This document shows positions 42,502 through 56,819 of a DNA stretch of 64,000 bases, in pieces. The notes under the pieces are model-generated. The model was not told the origin of the DNA. It saw only the letters and a list, made by a program, of their open reading frames with translations, and ran no database searches. Origin of the DNA: Candidatus Giovannonibacteria bacterium (GTDB taxonomy: Bacteria; Patescibacteriota; Minisyncoccia; UBA11713; 2-01-FULL-45-33); NCBI GenBank assembly GCA_016432405.1, contig CP066687.1, positions 347,040 through 411,039 on the forward strand. Direction: 5' to 3'. The translations under genes were made by a program, and so were the position numbers. Positions within the stretch are counted from its first letter, which is position 1. The number at the start of each line of letters is the position of its first letter.

Positions 42502-43399
42502 TAAAATAAAAGCACTTTTTCTTTTGTCCCGGGTCTCGAATTGAAGCTTCCGAGACCAACGCTTCACGTCAAAAATGACGCGATCGACACTTTAATTGTT
42601 GGACGCTCCGACGAAAAGTCGGAGTTGAGTACAAAAATTAAAATTGAAACTCCACGACCAGCTTCCGCTAGCCGTGCCTTGTTACGACTTACTCCCTGTC
42701 ATCCCGCCATCCTTATTCCCCGCTAAGCGGGACTTTTGGGTCGGCGGGACTTCCTTGAGTTGACGGGCGGTGAGTACAAGACTCGAGAACGTATTCACCG
42801 CAGTATAGCTGACCTGCGATTACTAGCGATTCCGTCTTCATGCGCTCGAGTTGCAGAGCGCAATCCGAACTGGGCCGGCCTTTGGTGAGATTAGCTCCGC
42901 CTCGCGGCTTCGCGACTCATTGTGGACGGCATTGTAGCACGTGTGTAGCCCAGGGCATCAAAGGGCCATGCTGACTTGGCGTCATCCCCGCCTTCCTCCC
43001 CGCGGTGCGGGGCAGTCTCTTGTGACACTTGTAACACAAAATAGGGGTTGCGTTCGTTGCCCCACTTAAGGGAACAGCTCAAGCCACGAACTGACGACAG
43101 CCATGCAGCACCTGTCCCGACGTCCTTGTGAGACGCACGCCTTTCGGCGGGCTTATCGTCGGGATTTCAAGCCCTGGTGAGGTTTTTCGTTTAACATCGA
43201 ATTGAACCACATGCTCCACCGCTTGTGCGAGTCCCCGTCTATTCCTTTGAGTTTTAAACTTGCGTTCGTACTTCCCAGGCGGATGACTTAACGCGTTAGC
43301 TTCGCCACTCGAAGGGTCGATACTTCCAATGGCTAGTCATCATCGTTTAGGGCGTGGACTACAAGGGTATCTACAAATTTGTTACAACTCAATTTTACT

Positions 43400-43680
43400 A
43401 ATCGGTGCTAATTTTTGGAGTCAAGATTGGTGCTTGACAAATAAATTTTTATATGCTATGCTTGATATGGAGGTGATTTATGCTTGTATGGATTTGTGAG
43501 AAAACCGGGCCGCAAGGTTTAGCCCGACTTGTCTACAAAGAGTTCCTCGCGTGGATGCTCCTTGCGTCTTTGCTTGGTCAGGTTTATCTTTTGCTCCGGT
43601 AGAACCGAGGATCAAGCGATAAGAGGGAATGGAATTAAACGCTATTCCCTCTTTTTTATTTCCAAAAATTAGCACCGATT
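43400..43680 (+). mobile_element. Inverted-repeat-bounded expression cassette (MITE-like) within the intron
   Basis: Perfect 20-bp TIR AATCGGTGCTAATTTTTGGA/TCCAAAAATTAGCACCGATT enclosing promoter, SD, ORF and terminator. Confidence 0.75.
43480..43602 (+). CDS. 40-aa peptide with hydrophobic C-terminal half, antisense to the rRNA
   Basis: MLVWICEKTGPQGLARLVYKEFLAWMLLASLLGQVYLLLR; TTGACA-17-TATGCT, SD GGAGGTGA, terminator 43621-43657. Confidence 0.65.
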   Translation: MLVWICEKTGPQGLARLVYKEFLAWMLLASLLGQVYLLLR

Positions 43681-44715
43681 TTTTCTTGAGTGAGCAGAAT
43701 ATTTCTATCTGCTTCTGCATATCGCTATGCAGTTCGGACTATATCATGTCGCCTTTTCGGCGACCTCGGCGTATAGTCTCTACGGGGTCATGTCCGAAAC
43801 TAAGTGTCGGACAGCGGACTTCCCTCGGGATTGTCCTCCGACGCTTCGGCCGGAGGGGTTTCCCCGATATAGCTCCGACGAAAACCTCTCGGTTTTGTCG
43901 GAGTCCGACTTCACTATTAAAATAAATAGTGCGTCGGACCAAGTTTTTTATCCTCGGAATTTATTCCGAGGGGACTAAGCTGCCTTGTAAACAGCATTTG
44001 TTAATCCTTTTTGATCCCCACGCTTTCGTGTTTCAGGGTCAGGAATGCCCCAGCAAGCTGCCTTCGCCTTTGGTGTTCCCCACGATATCAACGGATTTCA
44101 CCCCTACACCGTGAGTTCCGCTTGCCTCTGGCATCCTCCTAGTTTTGCCGTTTCCCGCCCATCTCTCCGGTTAAGCCGGAGTTTTTAAAACGGGACTAAC
44201 AAAACCCCCTACACACCCTTTACGCCCAGTAAATCCGGATAACGCTCGGGCTCCTCGTATTACCGCGGCTGCTGGCACGAGGTTAGCAAGCCCTTATTCT
44301 TAGGGTACAGTCATTTTTTTCCTCCCTTAAAAAAGCAGTTTACGCCCCGAAGGGCTTCCTCCTGCACGCGGCGTCGCTCGATCAGGCTTTCGCCCATTGT
44401 CGAATATTCTCGGCTGCTGCCACCCGTAGGTGTATGGACCGTTCTCAGTTCCATTGGTGGGGGCCAAGCTCTCACTCCCCCTAGCCGTCGTCGCCTTGGT
44501 GGGCCATTACCCCGCCAACAAGCTGATAGCCCGCAGGCCTCTCCCAGAGCCAATCTAAGTGTTTTAATCTCACGATACTATCGGGAATTAGCTCCGCTTT
44601 CGCGGAGTTATGCCCGTCTCTGGGGTGAGTTCCTACGTGTTACTACCCCGTCTGCCACTATCCCGCACCTTTTATTGCTAAAGGGTGCGGGACCGTATGA
44701 CTTGCATGCCTTATC

Positions 44716-44755
<40 letters not shown>

Positions 44756-45058
44756 AATAAGAAAAATTTCTTGCGAAATTTTTCTACTACGGGACAAAAG
44801 AAAAAATGCTCAAAATTTAACTGACTTAATTTTTTGGTGCAATTTTCTAAATTTTCAAGGTTCTCTTTTTGGGTCAAAACTCCTCAACAGGGCTCGGAGT
44901 AAATAAACCCGCGATAAGACCCCAAAGATCCTATCGCGGATTTACTATGCTAATTTTTCAAAATAGATTCAAAATAGATTAAAAGGTATCTGTGCCTCCG
45001 GCCATCTCAATATAAGTTAACCTATAATAATTCCATTATACTCGCCTAAAAAACGCCG

Positions 45059-55825: not shown

Positions 55826-56347
55826 CTATTTAGTATTTATAGTGCCCTTATTTTGTACCGTGAAAATATGAATGTTGGACATTAAGTTCATCTCTTCTAA
55901 ATTTTCTAAGAATTCCTGAGGTAACGGTCGCTCCCCCATCCATACACTTTTTTGTAAAGGCTTAAAATCGTAGGCAACTAGTTCTATTCTTAACCAATCG
56001 CGCTTTCTTCGCTCGCGCTCTGGAACGTCAAATATTACAATCCTTAAAATGCCGTCTTTTTTGGGCAAATCAAATGCGTTATCCGTTTTTGTGTTTTTGA
56101 TAAATTTTTTACCCAAATTCGTTATTCCCCACGTGTTATTTTTTCTTTCCACCAAGCCTTGTTTTTGCAATCTGGTCAAAATAACGGAAAAGGTTTGACG
56201 TTTAAATTGATAGTTTGAATCCAGCCCTAAAAGTTGCCTCCAGGCTCTTGCTTGCGGATACTTTTTTGGAAAAAAAGAATCCAGAGTCGCAAAACCTAAG
56301 TCGCCGATGGTTTTTAGGGTCAATTTAGTAAGATTTAGTTTTTTCAT
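55826..56347 (-). CDS. PaaX-like regulator (wHTH plus Cas2-like), copy 3
   Basis: LTRLQKQGLV, ITNLG, RIVIFDVPERERRKRDWLR..LQKSVW. Confidence 0.85.
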   Translation of the reverse strand: MKKLNLTKLTLKTIGDLGFATLDSFFPKKYPQARAWRQLLGLDSNYQFKRQTFSVILTRLQKQGLVERKNNTWGITNLGKKFIKNTKTDNAFDLPKKDGILRIVIFDVPERERRKRDWLRIELVAYDFKPLQKSVWMGERPLPQEFLENLEEMNLMSNIHIFTVQNKGTINTK

Positions 56348-56376
56348 GTTTCAATATTGTTCCAATACTACCATAC

Positions 56377-56410
56377 TATACACTTTTACACGATCGTTGG
56401 AATTTGTATA
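56377..56410. promoter_or_regulatory. 34-bp palindromic site upstream of PaaX-like gene 3
   Basis: TATACACTTTTACA-CGATCG-TTGGAATTTGTATA; 28/36 identical to the downstream site including flanking bases. Confidence 0.75.
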
Positions 56411-56424
56411 GACCATTGTGAATT

Positions 56425-56802
56425 AATCCGGTACTAATTTTCGGAGTCAAGGATTGGTGCTTGACAGGCTAAAATTAGATATGGTAAACTTCAACAAGAA
56501 TAAGGAGGGAAGGAGGGCTAGAGTATGATAGAGATAACAGAGTGTAAGGATAGCATAATCATTATTTCTTGGCATCCAGGACACTTTACAGCAAACGAGG
56601 GCGCACAGCATGACCGTATCAGAGATTTAATGAGGAGGGGCTATAGACTGATTTCCAACGGAGTAACGTCTGAAGGAGCTATCACGTTACAAGCAATTCC
56701 TCCTGTTACCAAAGACTGAAGAATGATATGTCCTGCATCCGTACAGATGGCGCATCGCTTTTATAGATGCGCTATTTCTTTTTCCAAAAATTAGCGCTAT
56801 TT
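56425..56802 (+). mobile_element. Second copy of the TIR-bounded cassette frame, with different cargo
   Basis: About 40 bp nearly identical to 43400-43439; right end TCCAAAAATTAGC. Confidence 0.7.
56525..56719 (+). CDS. Orphan 64-aa protein (cassette cargo)
   Basis: TTGACA-18-TAAACT, tandem SD TAAGGAGGGAAGGAGGGCT, hairpin plus T tract at about 56748-56782. Confidence 0.7.
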   Translation: MIEITECKDSIIIISWHPGHFTANEGAQHDRIRDLMRRGYRLISNGVTSEGAITLQAIPPVTKD

Positions 56803-56819
56803 AATGATAGAATGAGGGT

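Follow-up and report, generated by a model that had tools for sequence, protein, structure and literature searches.

Inverted-repeat-bounded mini-gene cassettes with unrelated cargo at an intergenic site and in rRNA genes of Parcubacteria-type genomes

Introduction

The rRNA genes found in CPR bacteria are rich in insertions, with figures of 48% for 16S and 82% for 23S genes given in PMC11270868. Among the described systems, the IVS in helix 45 of the 23S rRNA gene of Coxiella burnetii and Leptospira (S23p / 23S_rRNA_IVP) comes close to the cassettes reported here. According to the passages of PMC4990558 devoted to it, this is a small selfish rRNA-gene insert with a small ORF and a sporadic occurrence among relatives, its terminal inverted repeats forming a long precursor stem (28 bp in Coxiella) that is removed by RNase III. 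Our cassettes are likewise mostly located in rRNA genes or their introns and bounded by inverted arms of 16-23 nt, predicted to close a 20-bp stem in one copy (copy A, z = -5.7), and RNase III is encoded in the genome. However, the ORF of the IVS is rRNA-sense, promoterless and of one protein family, whereas the cassettes are antisense-only in 54 of 55 cases, have a promoter and terminator of their own as predicted, carry unrelated cargo (0/45 reach the Pfam cut-off), occur also in intron loops and between genes, and conserve their frame across sites. With respect to seat, copies A and D and 55 of 60 elements fit the IVS, although many lie in introns rather than helices and copy B is intergenic.

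A second likeness is with homing-endonuclease genes (HEGs), which occupy peripheral group I intron loops, also in CPR rRNA genes (Tsurumaki et al. 2024, PMC11270868); antisense HEGs are reported from nuclear rDNA introns (PMC9548176). Both are separately mobile gene units in a dispensable loop such as P6, sometimes antisense, with expression signals of their own. In contrast to HEGs, the cassettes are inverted-repeat-bounded and lack any LAGLIDADG, GIY-YIG, HNH, His-Cys or PD-(D/E)xK nuclease (0/45). The CPR survey classed such introns as ORF-less, and the words inverted repeat, promoter and antisense do not occur in it (PMC11270868).

Frames without an enzyme are familiar from other settings, and we found no published description of the present ones. 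The cassettes are small, have terminal inverted repeats and contain no transposase gene, as do MITEs such as the Correia elements of Neisseria, which are small and promoter-bearing and yield RNase III-sensitive hairpins when transcribed; however, MITE copies share their interior and show target-site duplications, whereas the cassettes enclose complete genes unrelated to one another, and no duplication was recognised. A constant frame that lacks an enzyme and takes single-gene cargo interchangeably is typical of the pdif modules of Acinetobacter plasmids, of integron cassettes and of phage morons, the last being promoter-gene-terminator units. In contrast to pdif modules, our elements lack 28-bp XerC/XerD sites (11-6-11) and have one dyad each; unlike integron cassettes, they have a predicted promoter of their own, with no attC, attI platform, integrase or array; and, unlike pdif modules and morons, they are seated in cellular rRNA genes rather than on plasmids or phages. 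A likeness to type I toxin-antitoxin pairs, in which an overlapping antisense RNA opposes the mRNA of a small hydrophobic peptide, may lie in the membrane-type cargo of 25 of 48 elements (by our own hydropathy rule) and in the host rRNA or intron transcript, which by position is antisense to the cargo, but the cargo of copy B is soluble and there is no host gene antisense to it.

Results

The window analysed here, a stretch of 64,000 nucleotides from a 651-kb Candidatus Giovannonibacteria genome, carries copy B on the plus strand between genes. The whole insertion (56417..56803, borders approximate) was defined against the empty orthologous site of relative G002, where the flanks are 16 nt apart on contig 18 vs. 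388 nt in the window (query 587 to 975 of window:55830-57600). Copy B is covered by contigs from four runs of a single study, which show no difference and no empty-site form, these runs being not independent and perhaps from the source sample. Reading inward from the left, the partly decayed arm AATCCGGTACTAATTTTCGGA (56425..56445), just 12 inner positions of which pair with the right arm, is followed by the dyad GTCAAG-N8-CTTGAC (56446..56466), the right half of which supplies the -35 box TTGACA (56461-56466), and by a predicted extended -10, TG-n-TAAACT (56485..56490); the promoter scan returned TTGACA-18-TAAACT at 56461-56490 with 10/12 matches and a TG before the -10. A Shine-Dalgarno-like AAGGAGGG (56510..56517) was read from the sequence 7 nt upstream of the ATG of a 64-aa orphan ORF (56525..56719), the product of which has a predicted beta-beta-alpha-beta-beta fold (pLDDT 78.8). 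Downstream lie a predicted intrinsic terminator, also read by eye, comprising the hairpin GCGCATC / GATGCGC with a 9-nt loop and a T-rich tail (56750..56782), and the right arm (TCCAAAAATTAGC..., 56783..56802), whose 13-mer is exact at 56783-56795.

Copy A (43400..43680, plus strand) is complete, its cassette comprising perfect arms of 20 nt (43400-43419 and 43661-43680), a predicted promoter (-35 at 43434-43439, -10 at 43457-43462; scanned as TTGACA-17-TATGCT at 43434-43462, 10/12 matches, TG before the -10), an ORF of 40 aa (43480-43602) and a hairpin plus T-run (43623-43660). It is inserted in the 3' domain of a group I intron (43374..44003, minus strand; splice borders inferred from an exon ending in U and an intron ending in G) of the 16S rRNA gene (42640..44761, minus strand, i.e. 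opposite to the cassette; Rfam SSU_rRNA_bacteria, 1300 bits). The intron was recognized by Rfam Intron_gpI at 43715-43937 with 38.8 bits (E 2.9e-8), the gathering score of 50 not being reached. Its short native P6 hairpin (43789..43817, minus strand) is replaced at the same place in the orthologous intron of G017 by a second cassette. In the predicted fold of the rRNA-sense RNA, the arms of copy A form the closing stem.

Comparison of copies A and B upheld the main points of the original prediction, which had proposed near-identical left ends and a common right end behind a terminator. The left ends (43400-43439 vs. 56425-56466) are alike in 38 of 42 alignment columns, with 2 substitutions and 2 single-base indels, the GTCAAG...CTTGAC repeat with TTGACA as -35 box included; at the right end, TCCAAAAATTAGC is exact in both (43661-43673 and 56783-56795), each time preceded by a hairpin and T-run. 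Since this 13-mer recurs reverse-complemented in the left ends (exact at 43407-43419, with 2 mismatches at 56433-56445), the ends of A and B are terminal inverted repeats, pairing over 20/20 nt in copy A and 12 nt in copy B, a feature absent from the prediction, as were the home almost only in rRNA genes and introns and the antisense lie. The cargos were called unrelated, and the 64-aa and 40-aa products indeed gave no blastp match at E<0.01. A strict terminator rule called 0 terminators in copies A and B, both loops exceeding its 8-nt limit, and support was taken instead from our own hairpin and T-run statistics over the cassettes. With 0 matches of the left-end pattern in 100 shuffles of the window and 0 of the reversed control in 401 genomes, a chance origin of the shared ends is excluded.

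The two copies belong to a larger family. This genome has four (A, B, C and D), and about 60 distinct elements were collected on public Parcubacteria-type contigs; the left-end pattern is carried by 5/20 genomes of the order and 9/401 of the class, and a matching right arm was present at 54 of 75 metagenome and 20 of 38 genome loci, so that the ends do co-occur well beyond the two copies on which the prediction stood. Most of these data are metagenome assemblies, and ends shared over 20-45 nt might conceivably have led to mis-joins; on the other hand, the genome of the window is one closed contig, copy B shows no difference in the four contig sets covering it, and several elements recur identically at up to 5 loci. 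The GTCAAG/CTTGAC dyad is conserved in all collected elements, bearing in mind that the collection pattern itself demanded the promoter motif and so under-counts decayed or variant copies, some of which were seen.

Cassettes measure about 140-480 bp (138-476 bp from arm to arm) and follow one order: arm, GTCAAG-N6-10-CTTGACA (-35), -10, ribosome-binding site, small ORF or small RNA, hairpin plus T-run, arm. Of 59 elements, 47 have a -10 matching at 4/6 positions or more and 34 have a TG; at least 6 T are present within the 10 nt before the right arm in 56 of the 59, and 52 have a hairpin of -10 kcal/mol or stronger. Each cassette is predicted to be a self-contained transcription unit, running from its promoter and ribosome-binding site through a small RNA or small variable gene to a terminator. 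An outward promoter starting from the left half-site (TTGACT, other strand) was considered and rejected, as most classes have no -10 at a usable distance.

As regards location, 55 of the 60 elements have rRNA-like flanks, and Rfam strand calls agree with the antisense-only lie of 54 of these. Within group I introns, the terminal P6 loop is a frequent seat; copy D is found in such a loop, its arms aligning as an extension of P6. Copies B and C are outside rRNA.

The cargo consists of ORFs of 32-104 aa or non-coding RNA and is unrelated between copies, with only 3 homologous pairs among 50 called peptides of at least 25 aa; one such pair (L024 vs. L077) gave a dN/dS of 0.13 across 64 codons. The median length of the longest ORF is 50 aa in sense vs. 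26 aa in antisense and 29 aa in shuffled sequence, and for 48 of the 59 elements the sense ORF is longer than the antisense one (Wilcoxon p = 9e-8), showing that cargo ORFs are longer than chance. No cargo among the 45 searched against Pfam gave an endonuclease domain, and a recognisable source gene was found for none. For the copy B product there was no Pfam family, the word search returned only itself, Foldseek gave no PDB match at E<=0.001, and the best score of 0.85 in the Atlas search was below the useful range. Its 8 phmmer matches include 7 that are repeats in giant proteins; as summing over repeats inflates the E-values, we did not accept homology to the Fn3-repeat protein P0002 (27% identity over 33 aa per repeat). 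Among non-coding cargos, 9 loci searched for tRNA gave none, and those of L046, L060, L109, L020, L073 and L019 match no Rfam family; the cargo shared by G017 and G243, a tRNA-like gene, is the only one reaching tRNA.

The arms of each element were compared with each other. At each of positions 1-19, 52-60 of the 60 elements form a Watson-Crick pair between their own arms, and positions 8, 10, 11 and 13-19 show several types of pair; outer pairs number 7.0/8 with the element's own partner arm vs. 3.8 with the arms of other elements. Hence the two arms of an element match over 19 positions and change together between elements. Within 33 distinct arm pairs, 18 mismatches would be G-U wobbles in the rRNA-sense RNA vs. 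5 in the cargo-sense RNA (binomial p = 0.01). Given the scarcity of G-T pairs in the arms, what keeps the two identical could also be a DNA-level process, one protein binding both ends, and not RNA structure. The arms are decayed in the intergenic copies B and C, and a rationale based on an RNA stem does not apply outside rRNA; this decay fits the RNA-stem rationale, with three intergenic copies (B, C and L137) as the sample. The idea that the arms are pre-existing host stems was rejected, as the same arms occur at unrelated sites and the P6 cassette of G017 brings a whole arm in place of the native hairpin of the window.

Exchange of cargo within a constant frame, as originally proposed, was evident at several sites. 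Between L066 and L095, the flanks are identical in 197/200 and 200/200 positions and the arms are identical, with unrelated interiors and breakpoints at the arm cores; for nine elements at one 16S-intron site, frames are 0.86-0.88 identical vs. 0.30 for the cargo (0.28 for shuffled cargo); and at the intron site of copy A, with flanks about 90% identical, G017 has the tRNA-like gene vs. the 40-aa ORF. Movement of a whole element is exemplified by L046 (23S helix) and L060 (intron P6), which are mostly identical, RNA cargo included, in unrelated flanks (84% mean column identity in the two-sequence alignment with flanks included). In addition to the empty copy B site of G002, copy C is absent from G001, G002 and G017, and copies B and C are thus present/absent polymorphisms. 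No consistent target-site duplication was seen by eye at the B, C, P6, 23S-helix and 16S sites, where palindromic stems could hide short ones, and no common target motif was seen.

As to an enzyme, the whole 651-kb genome gave no DDE_Tnp_1, rve, Resolvase or Transposase_20 match (serine and IS110 types being covered). It encodes one Xer-type recombinase of the Phage_integrase family, at 105 kb, and six Y1-HUH (RAYT-like) genes, 0 of these 7 falling inside the window, in agreement with the statement that the window lacks an enzyme gene. One RAYT-like gene directly adjoins copy C, and the same RAYT occurs in G001 without copy C. The proposed search for a transposase or recombinase with the same ends gave none: the arm-only pattern in 401 genomes returned only short pairs or solo arms, the widest arm pair being 476 bp in 113 loci and 330 bp in the 401 class genomes. 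No autonomous partner was found among these loci and genomes, which fits the non-autonomy that had been suggested.

Discussion

We think it on balance probable that copy B is an inserted copy of an inverted-repeat-bounded family whose cargo is exchanged by recombination at the conserved arm cores. According to this scheme, an internal sigma-70-type promoter and the hairpin plus T-run would express the cargo as a short transcript confined to the element. In a host rRNA or intron transcript, the arms would pair to a stem of about 20 bp, so that the insert is closed off as a hairpin extension and the host RNA may still fold; for copies seated directly in an rRNA helix, RNase III could trim the insert. 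Only the antisense orientation would survive in rRNA, since a sense-oriented terminator would stop rRNA synthesis. We surmise that whole elements may move between hairpin-tip sites, while cargo modules may be replaced by crossovers in the arm cores, on the left in ...CTAATTTTTGGAGTCAA and on the right in the T-run plus TCCAAAAATTAG. As agent, gene conversion over short homology following DNA uptake may be considered, as may the single Xer-type recombinase and a Y1-HUH enzyme.

These properties might also be read as those of a classical MITE family, i.e. non-autonomous IS deletion derivatives moved in trans by a transposase encoded elsewhere, perhaps in another genome or by an element since lost. 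In favour of this are the short arms and small size, the occurrence of several sites in one genome and of empty ones in relatives, the move of a whole element between unrelated sites (L046/L060) and the six Y1-HUH genes, one of them beside copy C. We nevertheless regard it as unlikely, given that no site has a visible target-site duplication, that interiors are unrelated between copies, unlike those of MITE families, that no autonomous partner with wider-spaced arms was found in the 113 loci and 401 class genomes, that the transposase families searched had no match in the genome, and that the RAYT adjoining copy C is found in G001 without it; moreover, Y1 enzymes work on subterminal hairpins rather than on long repeats at the termini. 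Less probable still is site-specific exchange by a host tyrosine recombinase in the manner of pdif, with the arms or the dyad as the sites between which a single Xer-type enzyme swaps content. Exchangeable cargo is indeed enclosed by conserved inverted sites and includes no enzyme, homology between elements at one site stops at the dyad spacer (left) and the arm (right), the dyad spacer, searched as N6-10, is mostly 6-8 bp, similar in length to that of tyrosine-recombinase core sites, and the genome does have one gene of the Phage_integrase family. However, there is a single dyad per element, the right end offers a variable terminator hairpin instead of a matching core site, the arms lack the 11-6-11 layout of dif sites, and the half CTTGACA of the dyad is already explained by its -35 role.

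Finally, the cassettes might not be mobile at all, being unrelated small genes under a common promoter/operator (a regulon of one regulator) with a standard terminator. The most conserved inner part does overlap the promoter, with an A/T-rich stretch upstream and then the dyad over the -35, and strong canonical promoters precede other small genes at the same intergenic spot in these organisms. Yet such a regulon leaves unexplained why the right arm, beyond the terminator, complements its own left arm exactly and changes jointly with it, why nearly all elements sit in rRNA genes or introns, and how there come to be empty sites and one element at two unrelated sites. Arm covariation and the L046/L060 move largely refute this reading, to which we give next to no credence.

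Returning to an inserted family with cargo swapped at the arm cores, we speculate, with more doubt than confidence, that the rRNA genes and self-splicing introns of ultra-small Parcubacteria may be safe landing pads for self-expressing, re-loadable mini-gene cassettes. These would be shuttled in an integron-like manner without an integrase of their own, riding across species on the most conserved DNA and swapping content at arm cores of 12-20 nt. The cargo would comprise membrane peptides, small soluble proteins, structured RNAs and tRNA-like genes, and, the host transcript being antisense to it, its output might vary inversely with rRNA transcription.

Part of the CPR rRNA inserts filed as ORF-less introns or left uncharacterised is shown by this family to be an organised, recurring element with interchangeable content and predicted expression signals of its own. 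If expressed, the cassettes could allow tiny genomes to acquire and shed small genes, within flanks conserved enough to recombine across species. They also offer a defined case of foreign DNA that may be made harmless in an essential structured RNA by arm pairing and antisense-only orientation. In addition, the cassettes provide some 50 putative small proteins and RNAs that lack annotation, with clear signals for both start and stop. For uncultured CPR lineages, the compact promoter/terminator frame could serve as an expression tool, and further copies could be located simply by their arm motif; what had looked like one long element of 964 bp in L012 is actually two cassettes in two neighbouring introns.

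Copy B belongs to a family of arm-bounded cassettes

The cassette at window 56425-56802 (copy B) is a real finding and belongs to a coherent element family, undescribed as far as our literature search could find. As the original prediction held, its left end is nearly identical to that of a second cassette in the 16S intron (copy A, window 43400-43680), with 38 of 42 aligned columns agreeing between 56425-56466 and 43400-43439; both harbor GTCAAG-spacer-CTTGAC, and the TTGACA of the -35 box comes from the second half of this inverted repeat. A promoter scan placed predicted promoters at 56461-56490 in copy B (TTGACA-18-TAAACT) and at 43434-43462 in copy A (TTGACA-17-TATGCT), each at 10/12 with a TG extension. 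The expected common right end behind a terminator was also found, TCCAAAAATTAGC being exact at 56783-56795 and 43661-43673 with a hairpin and T-run before each; a strict terminator rule called 0 terminators in either stretch because the hairpin loops are above its limit. The cargos, an ORF of 64 aa in copy B and one of 40 aa in copy A, are indeed unrelated. A point missed in the original prediction is that the two ends are reverse complements of each other. These arms form a perfect 20-nt inverted repeat in copy A (43400-43419 and 43661-43680), and the match is retained in the inner 12 nt only in copy B; decayed arms were seen in 3 of 3 intergenic copies (B, copy C of the same genome, and L137 of G002, one of the genomes compared). 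Between copy B and a 173-aa gene (55826-56347, minus strand) lies a palindromic box, TATACA...ACGATCG...TGTATA (56372-56411), that recurs in other contigs from the same samples; the insertion of copy B separates it from the -10 of the 554-aa gene that follows.

The source genome is closed, 651,549 bp long and of the ultra-small Parcubacteria/CPR type. Searching it and its relatives for the end motifs yielded further copies with both ends together, as one would expect of the proposed element; two of them lie in this genome outside the window, copy C (genome 477014-477322, 50-aa ORF) and copy D (genome 312304-312551, other strand, 40-aa ORF, 18-nt arms). With 6-10 nt permitted between GTCAAR and CTTGACA, the left-end pattern was present in 5 of 20 genomes from the order and, across the class, in 9 of 401 sampled genomes, and the reversed control pattern gave 0 matches. 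The left-end pattern also matched 75 metagenome stretches and 38 stretches of a species-representative genome collection, 54 and 20 of which, respectively, have a right arm complementary to their own left arm 138-476 bp downstream. Complete elements occur in records titled Candidatus Giovannonibacteria, Zambryskibacteria, Yanofskybacteria and Taylorbacteria as well as 'Parcubacteria group', Minisyncoccia and MAGs labelled uncultured Saccharibacteria or bacterium. The other 21 and 18 loci lack a right arm; they come mostly from unrelated phyla (Anaerolineales, Tenacibaculum, Paenibacillus and others) and look like chance matches or a different motif, and two of them (L018 and L104) are cut by contig ends. 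Promoter-pattern matches at six loci with no right arm (L032, L078, L087, L103, L116 and L118, from Anaerolineales/Chloroflexi records and unlabelled metagenome contigs) share a left context unlike that of the cassettes, ...GAAACAT-N6-7-CTCCTTTTGGAGTCAA with a 10-nt spacer, perhaps a distinct conserved promoter or operator of that group. Removal of identical sequences left 60 distinct elements; a candidate of 964 bp was rejected, being two cassettes in neighbouring introns.

In this family, a left arm of 16-23 nt (inner end ...CTAATTTTTGGA) is followed by the promoter dyad GTCAAG, spacer, CTTGACA, with most spacers of 6-8 nt, and by a predicted -10 at 16-19 nt spacing (at least 4 of 6 matches in 47/59 elements, TG extension in 34/59). 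Usually a ribosome-binding site of GGAGG type precedes the small ORF, and the cargo is followed by a stable hairpin (-10 kcal/mol or stronger in 52/59), a T-run (at least 6 T in 10 nt in 56/59) and the right arm, which begins TCCAAAAATTAG. With the promoter inward of the left arm and the terminator ahead of the right one, the predicted transcript of the cassette includes neither arm. At two loci (L135 of G009 and L134 of G004 contig 33), the part of the frame from GGAG to GTCAAG is interrupted by a GC-rich mini-hairpin, CCTGCCCCGC...GCGGGG, a repeat inserted in a repeat.

Antisense insertion at hairpin tips of rRNA genes and introns

The 16S rRNA gene of the window (42640-44761, minus strand) is split by an insert of ~630 nt with a group I intron core (43715-43937; Rfam Intron_gpI, 38.8 bits, E 2.9e-8, below the gathering score), and the 23S gene, outside the window, measures 4,246 nt vs. 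a 2,925-position model. The flanks of 55 of the 60 elements match these 16S or 23S genes, and 54 of the 55 are antisense to the rRNA in every flank match, the exception, L041, being one weak 57-nt match; independent Rfam strand calls concur. All elements except copies B and C and the truncated L063 have an rRNA or an intron flank. A frequent site is the hairpin immediately 5' of the conserved R/P7 core of group I introns; in copy D, for example, Rfam alignment puts a 224-nt interior in the terminal loop of the P6 hairpin, with the arms aligned as the P6 stem. Copy A and eight relatives occupy the 3' domain of the 16S intron; other elements are lodged directly in 16S and 23S helices or in the spacer ahead of the 16S gene. 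The cassette is a foldback insert at a host hairpin tip. The cassettes of L005 (G004, 200-640) and L080, upstream of or inside the 16S gene, sit in longer, imperfect palindromes with many repeats of the GGAAGTT/AACTTCC type.

Counting from the inner end, arm positions 1-19 show Watson-Crick complementarity in 52-60 of the 60 elements, and pairing ends at about position 20. Given two or more pair types at each of positions 8, 10, 11 and 13-19, the arms change together; outer pairs amount to 7.0 of 8 with an element's own partner arm vs. 3.8 with the arms of other elements. Among mismatches in 33 distinct arm pairs, 18 would be G-U wobbles in rRNA-sense RNA vs. 5 in cargo-sense RNA (p = 0.01), a weak hint that arm pairing is under selection in the host transcript. 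In the predicted fold of rRNA-sense RNA of copy A, the arms constitute a 20-bp closing stem (z = -5.7). The genome has an RNase III gene.

The closest analogue of the cassettes is the Coxiella IVS described in PMC4990558, whose terminal repeats pair into a 28-bp stem; RNase III excises this insert, and its ORF is on the sense strand and has no promoter of its own. A survey of CPR rRNA inserts (PMC11270868) lists in its main text group I and II introns, LAGLIDADG, GIY-YIG and 23S_rRNA_IVP ORFs, and many 'ORF-less' introns and uncharacterised inserts; the terms 'inverted repeat', 'promoter', 'antisense', 'opposite', 'hypothetical' and 'no ORF' are absent from that main text. A full-text literature search found no description of antisense cassettes that are bounded by arms and bear a promoter in the rRNA genes of bacteria.

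Movement of elements and exchange of cargo

The orthologous site of copy B is empty in G002 (16 nt vs. 388 nt in the window), and G001 and G017 have at this spot an unrelated small promoter-ORF-terminator gene in the opposite direction and without the arm frame (G001 C9 12991-13475, L130; G017 C17 58477-58895, L127); the intergenic site is a hot spot for small accessory genes. Copy C is absent from G001, G002 and G017. Around the cassette site, the 16S introns of G017 and the window are ~90% identical, with a tRNA-like cargo in the former vs. the 40-aa ORF in the latter; P6 of this intron contains a second cassette in G017 vs. a 29-nt hairpin in the window, and the common flanks extend up to the arms. 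The proposal of a conserved frame with exchangeable cargo was borne out by nine cargos at a single site and by two loci, L066 and L095, with nearly the same background and different interiors. At the former, the intron site of copy A, identity is 0.88 and 0.86 for the frames, 0.57 and 0.46 for the host flanks, and 0.30 for the cargo vs. 0.28 for shuffled cargo. At the latter, flanks are identical at 197/200 and 200/200 positions, arms are identical and interiors agree at 87/197; identity ends directly after GGAGTCAA and returns in the T-run ahead of TCCAAAAATTAG. Conversely, the same element including its RNA cargo is found at two sites, a 23S helix (L046) and an intron P6 loop (L060), mostly identical (mean column identity 84% in a two-sequence alignment that includes unrelated flanks) and with unmatched flanks. 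Empty sites, same-site cargo differences and the L046/L060 pair therefore indicate that whole elements move and that cargo modules are replaced between constant arms.

As for an enzyme, the whole genome has no DDE_Tnp_1, rve, Resolvase or IS110-type Transposase_20 match; it has one Phage_integrase-family (Xer-type) gene and six Y1_Tnp matches. One of these, a Y1-HUH (RAYT-like) gene with a flanking REP-like palindrome GCCACTTGGCAACCGGGTTGCCAAGTGGC, directly adjoins copy C on its right (genome 477323-478010; L011 ~1795-2470). The same gene is found in G001, where copy C is absent, and both are missing from G002 and G017. An arm-only search of 401 genomes for an enzyme with the same ends returned nothing but solo arms and short pairs of 188-330 bp, and neither a target-site duplication nor a common target word was apparent.

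For expression, RNA processing and mobility, we offer predictions. The cassette would be a self-contained transcription unit producing a small protein or RNA. We surmise that the rRNA or intron can fold around the insert thanks to the arm stem, which in helix-borne copies may be an RNase III site as in known IVSs; antisense-only orientation would be expected if an intrinsic terminator were lethal in the rRNA sense. Spread may combine whole-element insertion into hairpin tips and hitch-hiking with mobile introns, with interiors replaced through crossovers in the arm cores.

Protein and RNA cargos

Cargo in the family is both real and diverse. The median length of the longest ORF is 50 aa in sense, 26 aa in antisense and 29 aa in shuffled sequence, and the sense ORF is longer than the antisense one in 48 of 59 cases (Wilcoxon p = 9e-8). 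Among 50 called cargo peptides of at least 25 aa, only three pairs are similar at E<0.01; one of the cargo pairs, L024 vs. L077, has a dN/dS of ~0.13 over 64 codons, with dS near saturation. None of 45 cargos reached a Pfam cut-off, and a crude rule of our own finds a hydrophobic segment of membrane type in 25 of 48. The 64-aa cargo of copy B is an orphan, the word-index search returning only itself; its AlphaFold model, made with no alignment, has a beta-beta-alpha-beta-beta fold (pLDDT 78.8) with no PDB match at E<=0.001, and exhaustive phmmer gave only summed weak matches to repeats of giant proteins. One such match, the Fn3-repeat protein P0002, was compared directly with the cargo and run through Pfam; with 27% identity over 33 residues per repeat and summed weak matches, it was rejected as a homologue.

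The non-coding cargo shared by L046 (1224-1598, minus strand) and L060 (854-1232, plus strand) is a common structured RNA of ~150 nt with paired, compensatory changes in at least two stems (e.g. GAACTG/CAGTTC vs. GACCTG/CAGGTC); it matches no Rfam family and is a candidate for a new small RNA. In G017 and G243, the cargo of the element is a tRNA-like gene (ARAGORN 'tRNA-???'; Rfam tRNA 31.6 bits vs. a gathering score of 29) at the 16S-intron site corresponding to window 43400-43680, on the strand opposite the 16S rRNA (L136 of G017, 1500-1690; L131 of G243). The anticodon loop of this gene is odd. The 268 nt compared between the two loci are identical and the two genomes are placed in different families, which may reflect either transfer or mis-binning.
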